Below, piece after piece: positions 5,492-61,896 of a DNA stretch of 64,000 nucleotides; the first letter of the stretch is position 1; every line of letters begins with the position of its first letter. Position numbers and translations under genes: made by a program. A model generated the notes under the pieces. The model saw nothing but the letters and a program-made list of their open reading frames with translations, searched no databases and was not told the DNA's origin. The DNA comes from Polyangiales bacterium (GTDB lineage Bacteria; Myxococcota_A; Polyangia; Polyangiales; Ga0077539), in contig JBGARZ010000009.1 in assembly GCA_044229975.1 (NCBI GenBank), forward strand, positions 91,947 to 155,946, read 5' to 3'.

Positions 5492-6034
5492 TCAGGACCG
5501 CAGCGCGAGTCTCATGTGCACGCGCGTCGACCAGTCGAGGCCCTCGGCCGTCTGGTCGCGCTCGATGGCCCGCAGTCCCTCGCCGCACTGATCGCGCGGA
5601 ACCACCACGAAGCCGTGACGCGCGTACCACGGGGCGTTCCACGGGACGTCGACCTGCGTGTTGAGCACGATGGACGCCTCACCGTCGCCGCGCGCCCGCT
5701 CGATGACGGCGCGTAGCAACGCGTCGCCCACGCCGCGTCGCCCATGCGCGATGGCCACGCTGATCTGCCCGAGGCACGGCTCTCCGTCGACGCGGCCGAC
5801 GTAGGCCCAGCCCGCGAGCTCGCCGCCCACCTCGGCGACGGTGACGCAGCCCTTCGCGATGAGCCGGCGCGCCACGTCGAGCGGGATGCCATCGCCGTCC
5901 GCGAGCTCGGGGTGCCCCACCGCGGCGAAGCGGGTGTCGGCGTCGAGCGCCACGCGAACGATCTCCGCGATGTCTTCGTCGCGCGCGAGGCGCAGCGTGA
6001 GGGAGAGACGCTGTGGGTCGGGGCGTTGGTCCAT
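5492..6034 (-). CDS. GNAT family N-acetyltransferase
   Basis: 180 aa from the ATG at 6034. Acetyl-CoA binding motif QISVAIAHGRRGVGDALL; C-terminal YARHGF. Confidence 0.8.
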   Translation of the reverse strand: MDQRPDPQRLSLTLRLARDEDIAEIVRVALDADTRFAAVGHPELADGDGIPLDVARRLIAKGCVTVAEVGGELAGWAYVGRVDGEPCLGQISVAIAHGRRGVGDALLRAVIERARGDGEASIVLNTQVDVPWNAPWYARHGFVVVPRDQCGEGLRAIERDQTAEGLDWSTRVHMRLALRS

Positions 6035-11487: not shown

Positions 11488-11571
11488 ACTTGTTAGGGCG
11501 CCGCAGCAAAGTGCTCGGGCTGAACGGGCGTAGGGTGTCCAGCGCTCGCCAGAGCTCCCAGGCAGTCGGGC

Positions 11572-12084
11572 ATGCAACTCGCGACCAACGTGACGAAGGT
11601 GTTGAAGGAGACGGCCGCCGCCTTGAAGGGCAGCGAACGTCGGCGGTTCATGGCGCGGACGGTGCGCGACCTGTTCGACGGCGTGATGAACCGAGCCGTT
11701 CGCGCGCTCGACTGGGACGAGCGGACGTTGCGCAAAGGCAAGAACGAGCTGCGCTCCGGGATCGAGTGCCTCGACGGTCGCTCCGGCGGCGGACGTCCGA
11801 CGGCGCAATCGCGACTGCCGAACCTGATGCGGGATCTGCGCGACCTCGTCGATGGTCAGAGTCAGACCGATCCGCGCTTTCAAACGCAGCGGCTCTACAC
11901 ACGCATCACGTCGGCCGAAGTCCGTCGGCAACTCATCGCGCAGAAGGGGTACACGGACGAGGAGTTGCCGTGTGAGGAGACGATCCGCGTCAAGCTCAAC
12001 GACCTGGGATATGGGCTGCGCGCCGTGGCCAAGACCAAGCCGAAAAAAAGGTCGCCGCGACGGACGCCATCTTCGAACAGATGA
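11572..12084 (+). CDS. Transposase orfA (N-terminal part of frameshifted ISAzo13-like transposase)
   Basis: 170 aa. Ends 3 codons after an A7 run (12043-12049, cgAAAAAAAgg). Confidence 0.6.
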   Translation: MQLATNVTKVLKETAAALKGSERRRFMARTVRDLFDGVMNRAVRALDWDERTLRKGKNELRSGIECLDGRSGGGRPTAQSRLPNLMRDLRDLVDGQSQTDPRFQTQRLYTRITSAEVRRQLIAQKGYTDEELPCEETIRVKLNDLGYGLRAVAKTKPKKRSPRRTPSSNR

Positions 12085-12794
12085 GTCGTGAGCGGGCGAC
12101 GGCCGCGCGTTCGCCCAACGTGCTGGAACTGTCGATGGACGCCAAGGCCGTCATCAAGGTGGGGGAGTTCTCTCGGTACGGCGTCAGTCGCGTGCTGGTG
12201 TTTGCGCTCGATCACGACCACGGGGCCGAGGCGAAGGTGACGCCGTACGGCATCCTGCTCACAGCCCACAACGAGCTGACGGTGTCTCTGGCGACGGGGC
12301 CCGTCACGGCGGACTTCATCGTCGATCGGATCGAGGCGTGGTGGTGCGCTCACCGGGCGCGCTTTCCGGAGGTCGATACGCTCCTTTTGCTTCAGGACAA
12401 CGGGCCCGAAAACCAGAGCCGTCGCACACAGTTTCTGTCGCGGATCGTGGCCTTTGCGCAGGCCCATCGGATCAACGTACGCCTCGCCTACTACCCGCCG
12501 TACCACAGCAAGTACAACCCCGTGGAGCGCTGCTGGGGCGTCCTCGAACAGCACTGGAATGGGAGCATCTTGGACACCGTGGAGACGGTCGTGAACTTCG
12601 CTCAGACCATGACCTGGAAAGGGGTCGCGCCCGTCGTGCAACTGGTCACCACGACGTACGCCAAGGGGATCTCGCTCACGCGTGCGGCGATGGCGAAAGT
12701 CGAGGCGCAGGTCCAGCGTCTCGCGGGCTTGGAAGCGTGGTTCGTGGAGATCCTCTGCGCGCCGAAGGCCGTGCGGGGCGACGGAGCGCACTGA
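12081..12794 (+). CDS. Transposase orfB (DDE catalytic part, in -1 frame relative to orfA)
   Basis: 237 aa with DHDHGAEAKVTPYG...LLLQDNGPEN...YYPPYHSKYNPVERCWGVLEQHWNG. Overlaps orfA by 4 nt. The -1 frame is open from the A7 run, so orfA and orfB together give about 400 aa. Confidence 0.6.
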   Translation: MSRERATAARSPNVLELSMDAKAVIKVGEFSRYGVSRVLVFALDHDHGAEAKVTPYGILLTAHNELTVSLATGPVTADFIVDRIEAWWCAHRARFPEVDTLLLLQDNGPENQSRRTQFLSRIVAFAQAHRINVRLAYYPPYHSKYNPVERCWGVLEQHWNGSILDTVETVVNFAQTMTWKGVAPVVQLVTTTYAKGISLTRAAMAKVEAQVQRLAGLEAWFVEILCAPKAVRGDGAH

Positions 12795-47976: not shown

Positions 47977-48215
47977 GCCGCGACTCTACCGAAGAACCAC
48001 CCGCGATCGATCCCGCCGTCACGCCCTTCGTCAGTGCGACAAACCGAGCGCACTCCATCCCGGCGGCGTCTGGAAGCGCCGCACCTGTCGGCACACCCTC
48101 GCGCCACGGCCCCACATCGCGCCTGATTCATACATTGCCGAGCGTTTCGCGATCGCGGAAGGATGGTTCGTCCAGTTCCACCATTGCCCTTGATCACCTC
48201 CACAGGGAGCCTTCG

Positions 48216-49958
48216 ATGAACGCCCAACCCGGAGCGCGCAGATCTTCTCCCCCGCCCGCTGGCCCGACGCGCATCGGCCGCTACGACCTCCTCACCGAGC
48301 TCGGCCGCGGCGGCATGGCCAGCGTCTTCCTCGCGCGCGGCTTCGGCAGCGCCGGGTTCGAGCGCCTCGCCGCCGTGAAGGTGCTCCACCGAGAGCTCTG
48401 CCTCGACCCGGACTTCGTGGAGATGTTCCTCGATGAGGCGAGGGTCGCGGCGCGGCTGCACCACCCCAACGCGACGGCCATCATCGACCTCGGGGCCGAG
48501 GGCACGCGGCTCTACATGGTGATGGACTACGTCGAGGGCGACACGCTCCACGCCGTGCAGACGGCGGCCTCGGCGCTGCGTCGCGCGGTGCCGTTGGGCA
48601 TCGCGCTGCGCATCGTGCTCGACGCGCTGGAGGGCCTCGACGCCGCGCACGAGCTGAAGGACATCGACGGCGCCACCCTCGGTCTCATCCACCGCGACGT
48701 CACGCCGCACAACGTGCTCGTCGGGGTCGACGGCTCGGCGCGCCTGGTGGACTTCGGCATCGCGCGCGCGGCCTGTCGCACGGGCATCACCACCGTCGGC
48801 GTCGTGAAGGGGAAGGTGCCCTTCATGGCCCCCGAACAGATCCGCGGGAAGCCCGTCGACCGCCGCGCCGACATCTTCGCGATGGGCGTCACGCTCTGGG
48901 AGACCATGGCCCTGCGACGGTGCTTCCCGATGCGCGAGGGCGCCCCGTTGTCGCGCCTCGCCAACGAGGCGTACCGCCCGCTCATCGAGGTCGCGCCGCA
49001 GGTGCCCGCGGCGCTCGACGACATCTGCCGCCGCGCGCTCGCGTTCGACCCGGCCGACCGCTTCCCCACCGCCGCGGCCTTCGCCGAGACGCTGGAGAAC
49101 GACTTCCGCGGCCACGTCGCGACCCAGCGCGAACTCGGGCAGTTCATGTCCGTGGTGGCGGCCGACAAGGTGCGCCGCGAGCGCGAGGCCGTCCGCACCT
49201 CCGCGTACCCGATGCCCAACCGAACCGTTCCGCCGTCGGCGCTGCGGGACATCTCTCGCACGGTCTCCGTCCGCGAGCCCAGGCCCTCACACGCGCGCGG
49301 GACGCCCGTCCACTCGCTGCGCGCCCCGATGGGCGACGGCCTCTTCGACGGCGAAGACCTCACCGCCGTCGCGCCCTCCAAGCAGCCGCCCTCCATGGCC
49401 CCGTCGCGGCGCCCCGTGACGCTCCCTCCGCTGCCCGAGCGCTCGCCGAGCTCCATCGCCCCGCCGCCTGCCGCGGTCGACCCGTCGTCGGTCTACGAGG
49501 TGGCGACGCAGGCCTTCACGCTCCAGCGCTCGCGCCCGCCGCCCGTCTCCCCGAAGGCCGAGCGCCCCAACACGTTCTGGCCGGCCGCGCCCGTGCGCCC
49601 CGCCAACGACGTCGCGCGCGCATCCGTCGTGCCGCCGCCGTCGCCCCCGGCGCGGAAGCCCGTCGCCGAAGCGCCATCGCCGCCGCCCGTCGTGGTCGCC
49701 GAAGCGCCCGCGGCTCCCGTCGCCGAGGCGCCCGCCCCGGTCGTCGAGGAGCCCGCTCCCGAGCCCGCGGTCCTCGTCGAGCTGACCGTGCACTCCCTCG
49801 CCCCGCCGGCGCTCCCTGCGCTCGTCGTCGAGGCGCCCGTCGTCGTCGAGGCGCCCGTCGTCGAGGCGCCGACCGCTCTCGCCCTCTCGGAGCCTCCCGC
49901 CCCTCCGCGCGGGCTGCTCGCCCTCCTCCGTCGCTGGTGGTCAATGCTCGTGGGCTGA
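48216..49958 (+). CDS. Ser/Thr protein kinase with Pro/Ala-rich C-terminal region
   Basis: 580 aa from the ATG at 48216. Kinase motifs GRGGMASVF, AAVKVL, HRDVTPHNVLV, DFGIA and APE. C-terminus is low-complexity (PAPVVEEPAPEPA...). Confidence 0.85.
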   Translation: MNAQPGARRSSPPPAGPTRIGRYDLLTELGRGGMASVFLARGFGSAGFERLAAVKVLHRELCLDPDFVEMFLDEARVAARLHHPNATAIIDLGAEGTRLYMVMDYVEGDTLHAVQTAASALRRAVPLGIALRIVLDALEGLDAAHELKDIDGATLGLIHRDVTPHNVLVGVDGSARLVDFGIARAACRTGITTVGVVKGKVPFMAPEQIRGKPVDRRADIFAMGVTLWETMALRRCFPMREGAPLSRLANEAYRPLIEVAPQVPAALDDICRRALAFDPADRFPTAAAFAETLENDFRGHVATQRELGQFMSVVAADKVRREREAVRTSAYPMPNRTVPPSALRDISRTVSVREPRPSHARGTPVHSLRAPMGDGLFDGEDLTAVAPSKQPPSMAPSRRPVTLPPLPERSPSSIAPPPAAVDPSSVYEVATQAFTLQRSRPPPVSPKAERPNTFWPAAPVRPANDVARASVVPPPSPPARKPVAEAPSPPPVVVAEAPAAPVAEAPAPVVEEPAPEPAVLVELTVHSLAPPALPALVVEAPVVVEAPVVEAPTALALSEPPAPPRGLLALLRRWWSMLVG

Positions 49959-52779: not shown

Positions 52780-53517
52780 TCAGCGCTTGGGGAGGCCGGG
52801 GAGCTCGATGCGCTCCCAGACTTCGAGCGGTAGGCGGACGTCGACCTCGGCGCCGTGCTCACGGCGCGAGGCCACGAGGCGCGTGTGCACGACGGTGGCG
52901 AGGTCGCGGCGGGCGCGCCAGCGCTTCTCGACGGCGGTGAAGCGGCGCTTCTCGTCGGGCGTGGTGGTGAACCCGCGCGAGCGCTTGCCCTGCTTGGCGC
53001 CGCGCACCAGGCGAAAGCTGCGCGCGGCCTCGCGCACCTCGGCGGCGGTCGCCCCGCGCACCACCAGCTTGCCGCCCGTCGGAAGCTGGAGCGTCGCGTC
53101 GAGGAGGTTGAGCGGCCGGTCGTCGGCCGGGACGGCGTCGACGAGGGCGAGGAGGGCGCTCGCCCGGTCGCGACCGAGGTCACGTTCGAGGTCGTGGGCG
53201 ATGCGATCGGAGAGCGAGATCATGGCGTCGACGGTGGACTCGGTGAGGTCGAGGTCGCGCGCACAGACGTCGTCGAAGTCGGCCCGCCCGAGGGCCTCGA
53301 ACATCCCTTCGCTCTTCAACACGCGCAGCGCCTCGCCGACGTCGAGGAAGTCGTCGGCCAGGGTCGCGCGACGCTTGCGGATGAGGGAGATCGCGGCGCG
53401 GCCCTTCTCGCGGAGGCGCTGCGAGCGGGGCTTCTGGACGGACTTCACCTTCGGGGCACCAACGGGCGCGGGCTTCTTCTTCGGGGCGGGAGACTTCGAC
53501 TGCTTCGCTCGTGCCAT
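52780..53517 (-). CDS. Hypothetical protein with Lys/Pro-rich histone-H1-like N-terminal tail
   Basis: 245 aa. MARAKQSKSPAPKKKPAPVGAPKVKSVQKPRSQRLREKG... followed by an Asp/Leu/Arg-rich helical body. Divergent from hcp. Confidence 0.5.
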   Translation of the reverse strand: MARAKQSKSPAPKKKPAPVGAPKVKSVQKPRSQRLREKGRAAISLIRKRRATLADDFLDVGEALRVLKSEGMFEALGRADFDDVCARDLDLTESTVDAMISLSDRIAHDLERDLGRDRASALLALVDAVPADDRPLNLLDATLQLPTGGKLVVRGATAAEVREAARSFRLVRGAKQGKRSRGFTTTPDEKRRFTAVEKRWRARRDLATVVHTRLVASRREHGAEVDVRLPLEVWERIELPGLPKR

Positions 53518-53823
53518 GCGGCGAGCTTACCGGAGAGCGTACGCGGGGGGGAAGCGCCTTCGCGCTTGCGAATACCTGACCGTGTATTCGAGGCGACGCC
53601 CGGCGCGACGTCGCGGTCGTGCGAAGGCGTTGGGACAACCGTCCAACGCCATGGCGTCGTGTCCAACCCTCGGGCGGGAAAGCTCAAAGAGGGTCGCGCC
53701 CGCAGCGACGACGGCTCCGAAGTCGCGACGTGTGTGCAGGGAGTCCAAACGGCGAAGGGCGATCCCAGACGCGAAACGCCGGTCATCGGCGAAGAATCGC
53801 CTTCGAGGCGATCTGCGCTGGTA

Positions 53824-53840
53824 CTGGCACGGACGCTGCT
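53824..53840 (+). promoter_or_regulatory. Candidate sigma-54 (-24/-12) promoter upstream of hcp
   Basis: cTGGCACGgacgCTGCTct. The GG and GC elements are spaced exactly as in the TGGCACG-N4-TTGCW consensus, with one mismatch in the -12 box. About 85 bp upstream of the hcp ATG. Confidence 0.55.
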
Positions 53841-53922
53841 CTAGCGTTCTGCGCCGAACGCAGCGGGCAGCAGGTGCCCAGCGATCGAAAAAACCCTCAC
53901 CCCACCTGCACGAGAGACCACC

Positions 53923-54414
53923 ATGGCCGAAACCGTACATCTCTATCTCAAGGCGAACGGCACCGAGATCAAGGGCGACAGCACGCAGACCAGCCTGGGT
54001 CGCGAGGGCTCCATCGAGTGCGTCTACTACGAGCAGGCCGTGAAGACCGCCCGCGAGTCGGGCTCGGCCCTCGCCACCGGCCGCCGCCAGTACGAGCCGC
54101 TGCTCATCCGCAAGCGCATCGACAAGGCGACCCCGCTCCTCGCCAAGGCCCTCTGCAACAACGAGGTCATCGAGGGCAAGTTCAAGTTCTTCCGCCCGAA
54201 CCCCAACGGCGACGGCACGACGGAGCAGTTCTTCACGGTCGAGATCAAGCAGGGCCGCATCAACTCGCAGAAGCAGATCGTGCCCGACACGATCGTCCCC
54301 GCCACCTCCACCGAGCCCCCCTTGGAGGAAGTGACCTTCGTGTACCACTCCATCAACTGGACGTACACCAACGGCGGCATCACCCACGAGGACACCTGGG
54401 ACGCCCAGCGCTGA
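53923..54414 (+). CDS. hcp: Hcp (TssD) type VI secretion system tube protein, orphan copy
   Basis: 163 aa. MAETVHLYLKANGTEIKGDSTQTSLGREGSIECVYYEQAV...KATPLLAKALCNNEVIEGKFKFFRPNP aligns to Hcp1 family (PF05638) signatures: N-terminal beta strand, K/SSP.L...C..G..I at the matching position, size about 160 aa. Confidence 0.7.
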   Translation: MAETVHLYLKANGTEIKGDSTQTSLGREGSIECVYYEQAVKTARESGSALATGRRQYEPLLIRKRIDKATPLLAKALCNNEVIEGKFKFFRPNPNGDGTTEQFFTVEIKQGRINSQKQIVPDTIVPATSTEPPLEEVTFVYHSINWTYTNGGITHEDTWDAQR

Positions 54415-54544
54415 TCGAGCGCTGACACCAGCCGACTCAACGCGCGGCCCCGCAGCACCGAAAGGCGCTGTCGGGGCCGTCGCCCATTTACGTCCCCAGC
54501 GATCGGTTTACACCGCGCTCCGCGACGGTCTAGCCTGCGGGCCG

Positions 54545-56221
54545 ATGCTCACCTTCAGCGATGATCCGCGCGCCGCCGAGCAGCAGATGCAGGCGATCAT
54601 CTGGTACCTCACGGCCATCGGGCACCTCGACGGGGACTTCGACGAGAGCGAGCGCGAGTACGTCCGCGACCACGTCGCGCAGCTCGTGATGCGCCGGGCC
54701 AACGCCGCCCTCGCCCACGACGCCGAGCTCCGCCACAGCGTGGTGGAGAAGTGGACGGGGCACTTCCACGAGATCGCCGACAGCGTGGCCGCCGAGGTCG
54801 GCGCGTACTTCACCGAGTCGGTCTCCGAAGGCGAAGACACCCACCAGTTCGTGACGGCGAAGCTCAAGCTCCGGTGCTTCGAGCTCTTCCAGCGCTTCGA
54901 CGCGCCGGGGCGCCGGCAGCTCATGACCGTGGCCGACGCGATGATCGAGGCCGACGGCGTGGTGCACCCGGCCGAAGCTGAGTTTCGCCGCGAGCTCGCC
55001 GCGCTCCTCGACGCGCCCGAAGAGCTTCCCGACATCGACGTCGAGCCCATCACCGACGGCATGACCCTCATCGAGGCCACCGAGGTTCGCGTCCCCCGAC
55101 AGGACGATCACCCCTTCCTGCAATCGTTCGAGCGCGACTGGGACCGTAATCCCTCAGCGTTCGCGACGCAGGCCGAGGCCGACCTGCGGCTCATCCAGGC
55201 CGTGCACGAGCGCCTCGACAAGATGCGCGTCGAGGGTCGCGGTCGCCTCGACGGCAAGAAGGACGTCGGCGAGTTCGCCGGGCAGGAGCCCTTCCTCGAC
55301 GGGCACGTCCACGTGCTGCCGCCGAAGCCCGGCGCGGAGTACGAGCTGCTGGTCATCGGCGACCTCCATGGTTGCTACTCGTGCCTCAAGGCCGCGCTGC
55401 TCCAGGCCGACTTCTTCGCGAAGGTCGAGGCCCACCGCAGCAATCCGACGAAGAACCCCGCGATGAAGCTGGTGCTCCTCGGCGACTACATCGACCGCGG
55501 GCGCTTCAGCTACAACGGCATCCTGCGGGCGGCCATGTCGCTGTTCCTCGTCGCGCCCGAGGACGTCTACATGCTGCGCGGCAACCACGAGTACTACGTC
55601 GAGCTCAACGGCCGCGTGCTCGCGCCGGTGCGGCCCGCCGAGGCGATGACGTCGCTCCAGGGCATCGCGACGCAGGAGGTGTTCGGCGCGTACATGAAGC
55701 TCTTCGAGGCGCTGCCCAACATGCTGCTCTTCGATCGCACCATCTTCGTGCACGCGGGCATCCCCCGCGATGACAGCTTCGCCGAGAAGTACAAAGACCT
55801 CTCGTCGCTCAACGACAACGACCTGCGCTTCCAGATGCTGTGGAGCGACCCGAGCACCTCCGACGTGGTGCCCGCCGAGCTCCAGAACGCCAACGCGCGC
55901 TTCCCCTTCGGCCGCAAGCAGTTCCAGCGCTTCATGAGCGCGCTCGGGCTGCGGACGATGGTGCGCGGCCACGAGCGCGTCATCGAAGGCTTCAAGAAGG
56001 TCTACGGCGAGGGCGACGCCATGCTGCTGAGCCTCTTCTCGGCGGGCGGCAAGACCAACGACGACCTGCCCGAGACCAGCAACTACCGCGAGGTCACGCC
56101 GATGGCGCTGACCATCCGCCACCGCCATGGCGTGAGCGAGGTGGTGCCCTTCGCCATCGACTACGCCCGGTACAACGACCCGAAGGTCAACCAGTTCTTC
56201 CAGACGCAGATCGCGGTCTGA
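54545..56221 (+). CDS. PPP-family Ser/Thr protein phosphatase (metallophosphoesterase) with N-terminal TerB-like domain
   Basis: 558 aa. C-terminal half has the PPP motifs GDLHGCY, GDYIDRG, GNHE and HAG. N-terminal ~150 aa has the TerB-like DGDFDESEREYV and a second D/E-rich repeat. Confidence 0.8.
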   Translation: MLTFSDDPRAAEQQMQAIIWYLTAIGHLDGDFDESEREYVRDHVAQLVMRRANAALAHDAELRHSVVEKWTGHFHEIADSVAAEVGAYFTESVSEGEDTHQFVTAKLKLRCFELFQRFDAPGRRQLMTVADAMIEADGVVHPAEAEFRRELAALLDAPEELPDIDVEPITDGMTLIEATEVRVPRQDDHPFLQSFERDWDRNPSAFATQAEADLRLIQAVHERLDKMRVEGRGRLDGKKDVGEFAGQEPFLDGHVHVLPPKPGAEYELLVIGDLHGCYSCLKAALLQADFFAKVEAHRSNPTKNPAMKLVLLGDYIDRGRFSYNGILRAAMSLFLVAPEDVYMLRGNHEYYVELNGRVLAPVRPAEAMTSLQGIATQEVFGAYMKLFEALPNMLLFDRTIFVHAGIPRDDSFAEKYKDLSSLNDNDLRFQMLWSDPSTSDVVPAELQNANARFPFGRKQFQRFMSALGLRTMVRGHERVIEGFKKVYGEGDAMLLSLFSAGGKTNDDLPETSNYREVTPMALTIRHRHGVSEVVPFAIDYARYNDPKVNQFFQTQIAV

Positions 56222-56283: not shown

Positions 56284-58176
<1,893 letters not shown>

Positions 58177-58207: not shown

Positions 58208-59908
58208 TCACATGCAGCCGTAGAAGCCGCCGCCCTGGTTGCGGCAGAACGTCCCGCCCCGGCACAGCGCCCCGACGTTGGCCGCGTTGCACTGCTCGCA
58301 CCCGCCGGCGCGGCACACCTCGGAGCAGAAGGAGCCGCACGAGCCGCAGTTGTTGGGGTCGTTGGAGATCGCGGTCTCGCAGCCGTTGCCGACCTCGCCG
58401 TCGCAGTTGCCGAAGCCCGTGTCGCAGGTCCCGATCTCGCACACGCCGCTGCGGCACGCCGGCGTCGAGCGCGGGGGCCGGCAAGGGCTGTTGCAACCGC
58501 CGCAGTTGTTGATGTCGGTCTGGCGGTTGACCTCGCAGCCGTCAACCGGGCTGCCGTTGCAGTTCTCGAAGTTGGGCGCGCACGACCCGACGGCGCAGTG
58601 ACCCTCGTCGCAGACGTTGACCGCGTTGGCCAGGGAGCAGCGCACGTTGCAGCCGCCGCAGTTGTTCACCGAGGCGCCGGTGTTGACCTCGCAGCCGTTG
58701 GACTCGTTGCCGTCGCAGTTGGCCGAGTCGAGGTCGCAGCGAAGGATGTGGCAGGTGCCGCTCGTGCACGTCGCCGTCGCGCTGTCGAACTCGCACACGG
58801 TGCCGCAGGTGCCGCAGCTCGCCACGTTGCTGCTCGTCTGCACCTCGCAGCCGTTGGCCGCGTCGCCGTCGCAGTTGCTGAAGCCCGCCGTGCACGTCCC
58901 GAGCGAGCACACGGCGTCGCGGCACACGCCCGCCGCGTTGGCGTAGGTGCAGCGGGTCGGGCAGGTGCCGCAGTGGGTCGCGTCGGTGCGGAGGTTGACC
59001 TCGCAGCCGTTGCTCGGCTCACCGTCGCAGTCGGCGAAGCCCGCGTCGCACGACCCCACCGTGCACGCGCCCGCCGCGCACGCGCCCGTCGCGTTGGCCG
59101 GGGCGCAGCGGGTCCCGCACGCGTTGCAGTTGGCCGCGTCGGTGCGGGTGTTCACCTCGCAGCCGTTGGCCGCCATGCCGTCGCAGTCGGCGAAGCCGGC
59201 GGTGCAGCTCGCGACCGTGCACGCGCCCGCCGCGCACGCCCCCGTCGCGTTGGCCGGAGCGCACGCCATCCCGCAGCCGCCGCAGTGGCTGAGCGTCGTC
59301 GCGAGAACCGTCTCGCAGCCGTTGCTCGCCATGCCGTCGCAGTCGCCGAAGCCCGCGTTGCAGGTGCCCACCACGCACATCCCGCCGGCGCAGGCGGCGG
59401 TCGCGTTGGCCACGGTGCAGCGCGTCCCGCACGCGCCGCAGTTGTTCACGTCGGCGCGCGTCTCGACCTCACAGCCGTTGGACGCCGTCACGTCGCAGTC
59501 GGCGAAGCCCGCGTTGCAGGCGCCCATCGCGCACGCGCCCGCGGCGCAGATCGCCGTGGCGTTGGCGGAGATGCACGGCGCACAGCTCGCGGCCCCGCAG
59601 CCGGTCGACGGGTCGGTCAGCGCGACGCAGCGATCGCCGCACACCCGCTCGCCCGCGGCGCAGCGGAGGCAGGGGCCGCCGTCGAGCTGTGTTCCGCCGT
59701 CGCAGTTGTCGACGACCACGTCGACCGCGTCGATGGCCGGGACGTCGGGCGTGTCGAAGCCCACGTCGAAGCCCGCGTCGAAGCCGATGTCCGTCTCGAC
59801 CTGGACGTCGGCGGTGGCGGCGTCGGGCATCGCGGCGGGGTCGCTGCTGCACGCGGAGAGCGAAGCAAGGGTCGCGACGAGGGTGACCTGGAGGGCGCGT
59901 CGGTTCAT
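58208..59908 (-). CDS. Lipoprotein composed of about 12 tandem myxobacterial cysteine-rich repeats
   Basis: 566 aa from the ATG at 59908 (MNRRALQVTLVATLASLSACSS). Repeating unit is about 38 aa: CxxGFADCDGxxxNGCEVxxxxDxxNCGxCGxxCxxANAxxxCxxGxC. Confidence 0.7.
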   Translation of the reverse strand: MNRRALQVTLVATLASLSACSSDPAAMPDAATADVQVETDIGFDAGFDVGFDTPDVPAIDAVDVVVDNCDGGTQLDGGPCLRCAAGERVCGDRCVALTDPSTGCGAASCAPCISANATAICAAGACAMGACNAGFADCDVTASNGCEVETRADVNNCGACGTRCTVANATAACAGGMCVVGTCNAGFGDCDGMASNGCETVLATTLSHCGGCGMACAPANATGACAAGACTVASCTAGFADCDGMAANGCEVNTRTDAANCNACGTRCAPANATGACAAGACTVGSCDAGFADCDGEPSNGCEVNLRTDATHCGTCPTRCTYANAAGVCRDAVCSLGTCTAGFSNCDGDAANGCEVQTSSNVASCGTCGTVCEFDSATATCTSGTCHILRCDLDSANCDGNESNGCEVNTGASVNNCGGCNVRCSLANAVNVCDEGHCAVGSCAPNFENCNGSPVDGCEVNRQTDINNCGGCNSPCRPPRSTPACRSGVCEIGTCDTGFGNCDGEVGNGCETAISNDPNNCGSCGSFCSEVCRAGGCEQCNAANVGALCRGGTFCRNQGGGFYGCM

Positions 59909-59958
59909 GGCGACCGCGAGCCTATCCCGACCAGCGCACCAACCGGAACCCCTCAACA

Positions 59959-61896
59959 TCACGGCCTGCGCCGCGCCGCCTCCCGCGCCGCCGCTGCCGC
60001 ACCCTCCCGATCACCCAGCGACCGCAGATACTCCGACAGGTTGCGCCACGCCCTCGGGCGCTCGGGCTCCAGGTCGAGCGAGCGCCGCGTCATCACCACC
60101 GCCTCGCGCAGCCGCCCGGCCCGCGCCTCCGCCACCGCGAGGTTGGTCCAGGCCGCGGGGTGATCGGGCCACACGCCCAGCGCAGCCCGCCACAACGGAA
60201 CCGCCCGCTCCAGCGCCCCCCTCCCCTCGCGCGCCCCGGCGGCGAAGAGCGCGGTCGCACCGAGCCGCTGCGCGCCCACCCCGGCAACCTCCATCGGCGG
60301 CAGCCGCGGCAGCACCCAGCGCAGGGCCTCGCGGTCGATCGAAGCGTCCCCCACGGGCGCCCCGATGCGCGCGAACACCGGCGTCTCCCCGGCGCTCAAG
60401 CGCAGCCACGGAAACGCCCGCCCGTCGCCCTCCCAGCGCACACGATCGCCTGCTCGCTCCAGCAGCCAGCGCAGTCGCCCGTCCGCCGTCGACGGCGCTT
60501 CTTCCCTTCGCAGGAGGGAGCGCCGGGCGTCGATCCGTCGCCACGTCGTCGGCTGGTGCAGGTCGCCTTGCGGCAGCACCGTCACGTCGGGGCGTTCGCC
60601 TTCGACCCACTGCGCGTACATCGATCCGCCGCAGGCGTCGTCCGAGCCGCACAGCACCACGGCACGCGACGGAACCTCACCCAGCGCACCGGCACCACCG
60701 GGGATCTCGCTCGCCGCCCACCCGTCCGCCGCGCCCGACCAGTGCGCATCGACGCGCGCCAGCGTCGCGATCACGGCAGCGACAGCGACCACGAGCGAGA
60801 GCTCCGCGCGACGACGATCGGGGAGGCGCGTGAGCAGCGACCCGAGGGCCAGCGCGGCGAGCACCGCCATCCCTGCTTCGGTGACGAAGAGGGTCTGGCG
60901 GTCGGTGGTTCCCATGGGGTTGATGGCGACGGCGTAGGCGAGGTCGACGATGGTCACCGCGAGCAGCGGCCACGCCGCGCGACGACGCGCCGCAAGCGCA
61001 GCGCCGACGAGGGCGAGCAGCGACAGCGGGATGCCCAGGTCGTCGACGAGGACACGCAGCGCGGCGCCGAGGTCTTCGGGCAGGCGCCACGCCACCATGA
61101 TGCGATCCGCGTAGCTGGCGCGGATGGAGCGCGCGGTCAGGTGTTCGATGAAGCGCGCGGGCGTCTGCGGATCGCCCCAGTCGATGGGTCCATCGCGGAG
61201 GGAGGCGAGCGGGAGATAGGCCACCGTGAGGGCGCCCACGAAGGCGAAGGCTACGAGCGCGGCGACGGTTCGCGGGCGGCGGAGCGAGGGCCACGCGACG
61301 AGGCAGAGGGCGACGAGTGCGGCGGGTCGACTGGTGGTGTGGGTGGCGAGTGTGAGGCCGAGCGCGAGCGCGGCGAGGCGCGCACGAACGGGCGCGGGTG
61401 CAGCGCCTTCGGTGAGGGTGAGCGCCACGAGGCCGAGGAGGAGTGAGCCCGCATAGACCTCCATGGCGGTGGCCGCGCGCAGCACCGTGGACGAGGCCAT
61501 GAGCGCGGCGGCGGGGAGCGCCGAGACGGCGAGGCGAGCGGACGGAGCGAGGCTCGGGAGAAGACGGAAGGCGAGGACCGAGGCGCATCCGCACGCGAGG
61601 GCCATGAGGGCGGCGACGGCGAGGTTGGCGCGGAAGGCGAGGTCGCCGATGGGGACGAGCATCGCGAGGCGGACGACGAGGAGGTCGCCGGGGAAGCCGG
61701 TGGGGTGCGCGACGTCGAGGAGGAAGGAGGCGGCGGTGAGCTCACCGGCGTCGCGGAAGGCGACGGAGGGGGCGGCGCGGAGGGTGAACCAGAGCGCGGC
61801 GGGGATCGCGCCGAGGGCGAAGGCCCGCTGCGACACCCTACAGGGCGCAGTTGGTGAGGATGAGGTTGACGTCGGCCTCGATGACGCGCGAGTCAC
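59959..61896 (-). CDS. DUF2723-family polytopic membrane protein (glycosyltransferase-like) with C-terminal TPR repeats
   Basis: About 645 aa. N-terminus LGAIPAALWFTLRAAPSVAFRDAGELTAASFLLDVAHPTGFP matches the DUF2723 start; about 11 TM helices. C-terminus ERAVPLWRAALGVWPDHPAAWTNLAVAEARAGRLREAV is TPR-like. Start codon uncertain (GTG at 61896). Confidence 0.65.
   Translation of the reverse strand: MTRASSRPTSTSSSPTAPCRVSQRAFALGAIPAALWFTLRAAPSVAFRDAGELTAASFLLDVAHPTGFPGDLLVVRLAMLVPIGDLAFRANLAVAALMALACGCASVLAFRLLPSLAPSARLAVSALPAAALMASSTVLRAATAMEVYAGSLLLGLVALTLTEGAAPAPVRARLAALALGLTLATHTTSRPAALVALCLVAWPSLRRPRTVAALVAFAFVGALTVAYLPLASLRDGPIDWGDPQTPARFIEHLTARSIRASYADRIMVAWRLPEDLGAALRVLVDDLGIPLSLLALVGAALAARRRAAWPLLAVTIVDLAYAVAINPMGTTDRQTLFVTEAGMAVLAALALGSLLTRLPDRRRAELSLVVAVAAVIATLARVDAHWSGAADGWAASEIPGGAGALGEVPSRAVVLCGSDDACGGSMYAQWVEGERPDVTVLPQGDLHQPTTWRRIDARRSLLRREEAPSTADGRLRWLLERAGDRVRWEGDGRAFPWLRLSAGETPVFARIGAPVGDASIDREALRWVLPRLPPMEVAGVGAQRLGATALFAAGAREGRGALERAVPLWRAALGVWPDHPAAWTNLAVAEARAGRLREAVVMTRRSLDLEPERPRAWRNLSEYLRSLGDREGAAAAAREAARRRP

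Follow-up and report, generated by a model that had tools for sequence, protein, structure and literature searches.

The window, by which we mean the whole 64-kb stretch of DNA analysed here (71% GC), carries an hcp (tssD) gene for the T6SS tube protein, separated from a divergently transcribed neighbour by a 405-bp intergenic region (Table 1). The Hcp open reading frame (ORF) matches PF05638 over profile positions 1–129 of 129 (E 9e-22; 78.2 bits, cut-off 23.5) as well as TIGR03344 (104.1 bits, cut-off 58.9), and the protein is 68–85% identical to the products of 80 hcp genes, nearly all from Myxococcota and with copies embedded in T6SS core clusters among them. The 245-amino-acid product of the divergent neighbour has no match in Pfam or NCBIfam. 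On the other side, 130 nt after hcp, a plus-strand gene (54545–56221) encodes a protein with TerB and calcineurin-like (PPP-type) metallophosphoesterase domains that carries the motifs GDLHG, GDYIDRG and GNHE, followed by an ORF (56284–58035) that we take by eye to encode a CTP synthase. A Ser/Thr kinase gene lies upstream of hcp (48135–49958, plus strand).

Table 1. Features of the hcp locus, in window coordinates
Feature	Position	Strand	Basis or remark
Divergent neighbour, 245 aa (cluster c13)	52780–53517	−	bounds the 405-bp regulatory region
Candidate enhancer (UAS) site 1, TGGGACAACCGTCCAA	53631–53646	.	one mismatch to TTGGAC-N4-GTCCAA; 194 nt upstream of the −24 element
GTCCAA half-site 2	53661–53666	+	invariant in six syntenic loci; 20 nt past the right half of site 1
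GTCCAA half-site 3	53743–53748	+	invariant in six syntenic loci; 82 nt upstream of the −24 element
Probable sigma-54 −24/−12 promoter, TGGCACGGACGCTGCT	53825–53840	+	conserved island; GG, C and TGC invariant in 27 of 27 aligned promoters
Predicted 5' leader, about 72 nt	53851–53922	+	start from sigma-54 promoter geometry; conserved blocks in the syntenic alignment
hcp (tssD), 163 aa, T6SS tube protein	53923–54414	+	PF05638, TIGR03344
GC-rich hairpin followed by CATTT, likely transcription terminator	54442–54483	+	folding of 54412–54500

The initial annotation had described this hcp as an orphan, and within the window the description holds. Genes were called with GC3 guidance, and Pfam scans of about 35 ORFs of the window returned no T6SS core gene and no sigma-54 activator. 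Likewise, tblastn searches of the window with myxobacterial TssA, TssB, TssC, TssE, TssF, TssG, TssM, ClpV, TagF, VgrG and the FHA-domain enhancer-binding protein (FHA-bEBP) of related loci found no match. The span covered extends 54 kb upstream and 9.6 kb downstream of hcp, and its Pfam content consists of Ser/Thr kinases, an ECF sigma factor with a FecR-VIT-VWA partner, metabolic enzymes and an ISAzo13-type transposase. The transposase (DDE family, PF07592, E 5e-62; 11524–12794, plus strand) is split across two overlapping ORFs and may be frameshifted or decayed. A 584-amino-acid protein encoded at 58208–59962 on the minus strand contains many cysteine-rich repeats (...C.AGF.DCDG...NGCE...), which by eye we presume to be akin to the MopE-type repeats found beside the activator gene of one related locus (L067).

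The region after hcp is strongly structured. The 89-nt stretch at 54412–54500 folds with a predicted dG of −43.2 kcal/mol (z −4.2), a value reached by none of 200 shuffles, and the main feature of the fold is a hairpin starting 28 nt past the stop codon. A consensus scan for intrinsic terminators across 53300–54700 gave no match, missing this hairpin because no T-run follows it. We folded the equivalent region of 11 other orphan loci (L001, L003, L007, L011–L013, L015–L017, L024 and L067), and most have a hairpin and CATTT after hcp with differing stem sequences, the case of L067 being unclear. The hairpin looks like a lineage-typical terminator that lacks a U-tract, and its conservation after hcp indicates that the gene is probably monocistronic.

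The probable promoter element and its conservation

The 405-bp intergenic region contains a −24/−12 element that points toward hcp. The sequence as read is cTGGCACGgacgCTGCTct, with TGGCACG at 53825–53831, and the element agrees with the sigma-54 consensus TGGCACG-N4-TTGCW at 15 of 16 positions, the −14 position being C where the consensus has T. Its GG (53826–53827) and GC (53838–53839) have a G-to-G distance of 12 with 10 nt between them, which is the canonical spacing. The GC ends 84 nt before the hcp start codon (53923) and the motif begins 98 nt before it. The initial annotation had reported a consensus match with correct spacing about 85 bp upstream of hcp, and both observations stand.

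Taken by itself, the match is not statistically compelling. The element is the only match with at most one mismatch on either strand of the 64-kb window, but shuffled windows contain a mean of 0.5 such matches and 33 of 100 shuffles contain at least one, so that the window match alone lies within chance expectation. More relaxed sigma-54 patterns are rarer in the window than expected (39 observed against 59). The motif gains significance from lying between genes in the orientation of hcp and, most of all, from being conserved in relatives. As hcp is divergent from its upstream neighbour, it needs a promoter of its own. A scan of 53300–54700 for the sigma-70 promoter consensus found no match, which is weak evidence because the sigma-70 promoters of myxobacteria are a poor fit to the E. 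coli consensus.

We compared 80 hcp loci from a survey in which each species was represented by a single genome, frequently with several loci from the same MAG, and searched the 400 nt upstream of each gene for GG-N10-GC motifs. About 26 loci carry TGGCAC(G/A)-N4-(C/G)TGC(T/A) 97–140 nt before the hcp start codon; that of the window lies at −98. Across 27 aligned promoters the GG, the C that follows it and the TGC of the −12 element never vary, while the spacer and the flanks do. A weak motif in one core-type locus (CGGCAAG..., L053) was rejected as a promoter for its poor match and the absence of a palindrome of the kind described below. Separately, the string TGGTACCGGTGCAGCA, kept about 223 nt upstream of core-embedded hcp genes, falls inside the tssC coding sequence.

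Five loci (L001, L003, L015, L016 and L017) are syntenic with the window, hcp being followed in each by the TerB-phosphoesterase gene. An acyltransferase gene and the c13 neighbour are also present in L001, L003, L016 and L017, and not in L015. When these loci are aligned with the window, the intergenic DNA of all six has diverged around a small number of conserved islands: the divergent gene's start and leader, the palindrome TGGGAC-N4-GTCCAA, two further GTCCAA hexamers, the −24/−12 element, and parts of the hcp leader that include the ribosome-binding region. This alignment is a classical phylogenetic footprint. The island nearest the divergent gene spans about 45 nt (53525–53570; CTTACCGGAGAG.GTACG...GGGGGAAGCG), is kept in all six loci, and is presumably the leader or promoter of the 245-amino-acid protein gene.

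These comparisons bear directly on the possibility that the sigma-54 match arose by chance in GC-rich DNA and that an unrecognised sigma-70 or ECF-type promoter serves hcp. The chance rate in shuffled windows, the weakness of the empty sigma-70 scan and the existence of orphan copies that manage without the element (L002, L005, L008 and L050) would all be compatible with such an origin. However, chance matches would not be expected to show invariant promoter positions around a variable spacer at a fixed distance from hcp in 27 loci, nor to form a conserved island between diverged flanks. Moreover, the motif co-occurs with the palindrome and with the sigma-54 activator genes described below, and the window's best sigma-54 match and its only palindrome share one intergenic region. 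We consider a chance origin very unlikely. By contrast, we hold with good confidence that 53825–53840 is a functional sigma-54 (RpoN) promoter of a monocistronic hcp cassette, a reading carried by the footprint and by the recurrence of the element at a similar distance from hcp in about 26 loci. The single-sequence call of a sigma-54 promoter was thus right, although it was statistically unsupported without comparative data.

From the geometry of sigma-54 promoters, transcription would start at about 53850–53852, 12 nt after the C of the GC element. The 3' end of the predicted leader is the conserved ribosome-binding region CCTGCACGAGAGACCACC. The idea of a riboswitch or other leader RNA was dropped, as an Rfam search of 53500–54560 returned no family and the predicted leader fold was no better than that of shuffled sequences (z +0.74).

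A palindrome upstream of the promoter and its distribution

Upstream of motif-bearing hcp genes, GTCCAA/TTGGAC hexamers reach a density of 7.3 per kb, compared with 0.39 per kb upstream of the remaining hcp genes, and they resolve into a 16-bp palindrome, TTGGAC-N4-GTCCAA. Scanning the 80 loci and the whole window (892 kb, at most two mismatches) located this palindrome 53 times at sigma-54-linked hcp genes, in about 25 loci with one to three copies each, and only twice elsewhere in the 892 kb. Copies are spaced 18–23 nt apart and start 70–220 nt upstream of the −24 element. This enhancer sequence did not appear in the literature that we searched by topic.

The initial annotation had suggested looking for enhancer sites upstream of the promoter, and such a scan identifies candidates: a palindrome 194 nt upstream of the −24 element and GTCCAA half-sites beginning at 53661 and 53743. 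Site 1 is the only palindrome match with at most two mismatches in the window and is conserved in the six syntenic loci. Where the window has one full palindrome and two half-sites, loci in which an activator gene adjoins hcp have up to three full palindromes. The window's sole palindrome and sole good sigma-54 match thus fall within a single 405-bp intergenic region; by a rough estimate, the chance of two motifs, each expected about once per window, being so ordered within 405 bp is of the order of 1e-5.

About 115 nt separate the palindrome from the start codon of the divergent gene, and the minus strand has a sigma-54-like string, TGGCACGAGCGAAGCA, at 53501–53516. These features raise the alternative that the conserved elements regulate the 245-amino-acid protein gene and not hcp. 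We do not accept the minus-strand string as a promoter: it overlaps the divergent gene's start codon (M-A-R-A-K), is directed into the coding sequence and is kept in orthologues as protein-coding DNA. Such a false positive should be borne in mind in motif scans. The −24/−12 element, moreover, faces hcp, and the combination of promoter and palindrome (hereafter, the module) accompanies hcp into contexts that lack the 245-amino-acid neighbour. Regulation of the divergent gene by these elements is therefore very unlikely, and we treat them as belonging to hcp.

Clustering of flanking ORFs and Pfam scans of representatives allowed us to class the hcp loci by context. In the core-embedded class, which includes Corallococcus, Hyalangium, Archangium, Cystobacter, some Nannocystaceae and others, the gene order is tssM-tagF-tssA-tssB-tssC-hcp-tssE-tssF-tssG-clpV. 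The module is present at 25 of the 31 non-core hcp loci and at none of the 47 core-embedded ones (Fisher p 4e-15), a figure that overstates independence because the two classes are largely different lineages: core-embedded copies are mostly from Myxococcia and module-bearing copies from Polyangiales-like MAGs, so that the contrast is confounded by phylogeny. Since a core-embedded hcp follows tssC, it may need no promoter of its own. The initial annotation had proposed co-regulation of this orphan with a distant T6SS core locus. This proposal found no support in the 47 core-embedded loci, which all lack the module and come mostly from Myxococcia, from genomes other than that of the window, those of its closest relatives and the module-bearing ones.

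The paralogues of hcp are not uniformly regulated, as judged by the loci that lack all or part of the module. Orphans L002, L005, L008 and L050 have no module and a different upstream region; L005 and L008, and also L002 and L050, share another conserved sequence there (GGGGGCTTGCAGC...). L005 resides in the same MAG as the module-bearing L017 and L024, which indicates that paralogues within one genome are regulated differently. An Enhygromyxa MAG (L074) has a perfect TGGCACACGCCTTGCT at 5939–5954, 62 nt before an hcp-vgrG pair, with no palindrome; this element is probably a sigma-54 hcp promoter under a different activator.

Two loci contain three tandem copies of hcp (L006, 3691–6489; L042, from 1167 on). 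Every copy in L006 comes with a sigma-54 box of its own (3807, 4720 and 5894), and two have upstream palindromes, which suggests that the cassette has been amplified as a unit. Judging from these tandem copies and from its occurrence in several genomic contexts, the putative enhancer-promoter-leader-hcp-terminator unit appears to behave as a cassette.

An independent scan of metagenome contigs for an exact version of the module returned 33 matches. Three lie outside ORFs in contigs of 66–72% GC, and all three have hcp 93–101 nt downstream. Another 29 are in contigs of 33–62% GC without similarity to the reference proteins used, and the same absence of reference similarity applies to a match in a 66% GC contig (L082). 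The one non-hcp match that we inspected (L097) falls inside a 511-amino-acid ORF. The 30 matches other than the three at hcp are taken to be chance occurrences, for which a rough estimate is about 5–60. No regulon member other than hcp emerged among the 33 module matches.

The candidate activator

At 12 module-bearing loci the gene divergently adjoining hcp encodes a protein with an FHA domain, a Sigma54_activat domain and an AAA lid (PF00498, E 1e-13 to 1e-17; PF00158, E 1e-66). A GAFTGA loop is present in 8 of these 12 activators; in L024 the loop reads GAYTGA, and GAFTGA is absent from the remaining three. The GAYTGA variant is functional and occurs naturally in HrpS, an active activator (PMC3105312). 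The C-terminal tail resembles a helix-turn-helix (HTH) and reads ...GLDRSYVYRLIRKHEL or a close variant in 11 of the 12, the remaining protein (L042) being cut by the contig end. No named NCBIfam equivalog scored above threshold for the FHA activator.

A window-type locus and an activator-linked locus occur together in each of three MAGs (JADJAE01, JAUSAZ01 and CAIOSS01). In JADJAE01 the palindromes of the two are nearly identical, TGGGACGATCGTCCAA at the window-type locus (L017) and TTCGACGATCGTCCAA beside the activator gene (L024). The suggestion in the initial annotation of an enhancer-binding-protein regulon finds strong support and takes concrete form, in that a palindrome accompanies the promoter and an FHA-bEBP gene stands divergently beside hcp in 12 related loci. 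The cognate activator of the window's hcp is most likely an orthologue of this FHA + AAA+ + HTH protein, encoded outside the 64-kb window; our confidence in its identity is lower than that in the promoter. From what relatives carry, we assume that both rpoN and the activator gene are present in the window's genome. According to Keseler and Kaiser (1997), as cited in PMC12316311, rpoN is essential in M. xanthus.

The palindrome is provisionally assigned to the FHA-bEBP from gene adjacency. In a competing reading the promoter is real, but another protein, for instance a repressor or a different activator, occupies the palindrome, and the FHA-bEBP does not regulate this copy. In window-type loci the neighbour is c13 and there is no more than one full palindrome, and the L074 element, with its perfect sigma-54 box and no palindrome, implies that other activators can serve hcp. 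Several observations speak for the FHA-bEBP instead. Tandem 16-bp inverted repeats 70–220 nt upstream of a −24/−12 element are the classical layout of a bEBP enhancer, the palindrome is essentially confined to these hcp promoters, and the activator that adjoins hcp in relatives has an HTH tail. Within one MAG, furthermore, the site at the window-type locus nearly equals that at the activator-adjacent locus. Binding of the palindrome by another factor is on balance rather unlikely, and we retain the FHA-bEBP as the candidate regulator.

The phosphoesterase gene is a neighbour of hcp in all five window-type loci, and the kinase gene is also found in L003. As a speculation, the kinase encoded at 48135–49958 and the TerB-PPP phosphoesterase might feed the signalling of the FHA-domain activator.

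Proposed mechanism and known systems

We propose the following model for the control of this hcp. In line with the established mechanism of sigma-54, RNA polymerase holoenzyme containing sigma-54 would sit on the GG and GC of 53825–53840 as a closed complex. An FHA-type bEBP encoded elsewhere would bind the palindrome at 53631–53646 together with the two GTCCAA half-sites, form an AAA+ ring, loop to the promoter and open the complex at the expense of ATP. Transcription would then run from near 53851 to the hairpin terminator. FHA domains bind phosphothreonine, and the presence of one in the candidate suggests that Ser/Thr kinase signalling may gate the activator.

The regulon seen so far comprises only non-core hcp genes, and the supply of tube subunits therefore appears to be switched apart from the rest of the machinery. 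A wider reading, which we regard as possible but doubtful, is that Polyangiales-like bacteria have a "tube-subunit supply" regulon in which scattered and tandem hcp cassettes all answer to one FHA-bEBP that has no other targets. In Pseudomonas, the PpkA-Fha1-PppA system exerts phosphothreonine/FHA control of the T6SS post-translationally; if the wider reading is true, the same logic would move from post-translational control to transcription of hcp. T6SS regulation in Myxococcota is essentially uncharted. The analysis yields consensus sequences for the 16-bp enhancer and for the promoter, both open to testing, along with a candidate regulator, and these could be used to predict T6SS arming in largely uncultured predators and to annotate hcp paralogues in MAGs.

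Control of hcp by sigma-54 and a bEBP is already known from other bacteria, as the initial annotation correctly stated (PMC3439928; PMC10482370). In V. cholerae V52, ChIP showed enrichment of RpoN at the hcp promoter, and a vasH mutant had 1000-fold lower hcp expression with vipAB unaffected (PMC3439928). RpoN and VasH in V. cholerae activate the satellite hcp operons (hcp1 and hcp2-vgrG) and not the main cluster (PMC3439928). The window resembles this arrangement in having a probable sigma-54 promoter before an hcp that lies away from a main cluster, and we likewise propose that the tube protein is gated by a dedicated bEBP and the sheath and baseplate cluster separately. VasH, however, lacks an FHA domain and has its gene within the main cluster, whereas the candidate here is an FHA-bEBP encoded beside an hcp paralogue in relatives. 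Unlike the V. cholerae satellite operons, the window's hcp has no vgrG or effector gene downstream and is probably monocistronic with its own predicted terminator, and its phylum is Myxococcota and not, as for V. cholerae, Gammaproteobacteria.

A second parallel is the RpoN/Sfa2 system of P. aeruginosa, which activates the H2-T6SS and its orphan vgrG/effector loci, as reviewed in PMC10482370. There, as proposed here, a bEBP and sigma-54 act on orphan T6SS loci scattered in the genome. In contrast, Sfa2 is encoded in, and activates, a core cluster, while the module is absent from all 47 core-embedded hcp loci and hcp genes are its sole targets so far. A sigma-54 promoter before an auxiliary hcp is thus shared with the VasH/Sfa2-type systems; an activator gene inside the main cluster is not, the activator genes of the 12 related loci lying beside orphan hcp genes amid housekeeping or unrelated genes.

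A third point of comparison is offered by the FHA-domain EBPs of M. xanthus, which belong to the same phylum and have the same plan (FHA + sigma-54 AAA+ + HTH), with a presumed link to Ser/Thr kinases. These proteins were reportedly studied by Jelsbak, Givskov and Kaiser (PNAS, 2005) for their part in fruiting-body development. We know of no M. xanthus FHA-domain EBP linked to hcp or the T6SS, and our literature search returned none. Nor did this search find a paper on sigma-54 control of hcp in myxobacteria, and a 2023 review of T6SS regulation leaves Myxococcus unmentioned, the sigma-54/bEBP examples in those of its parts that bear on the subject being all from Gammaproteobacteria (PMC10482370).

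The regulatory principle is therefore known from VasH and Sfa2, and it is the phylum, the type of activator and the enhancer sequence that are new. Four differences set the proposed system apart from those of VasH and Sfa2: its phylum, the FHA sensory domain of its candidate activator, the location of the activator gene, and targets that appear to be hcp alone. If the model is true, separate sigma-54 gating of the tube protein arose or persisted in a distant phylum, where it is equipped with an FHA sensory module.
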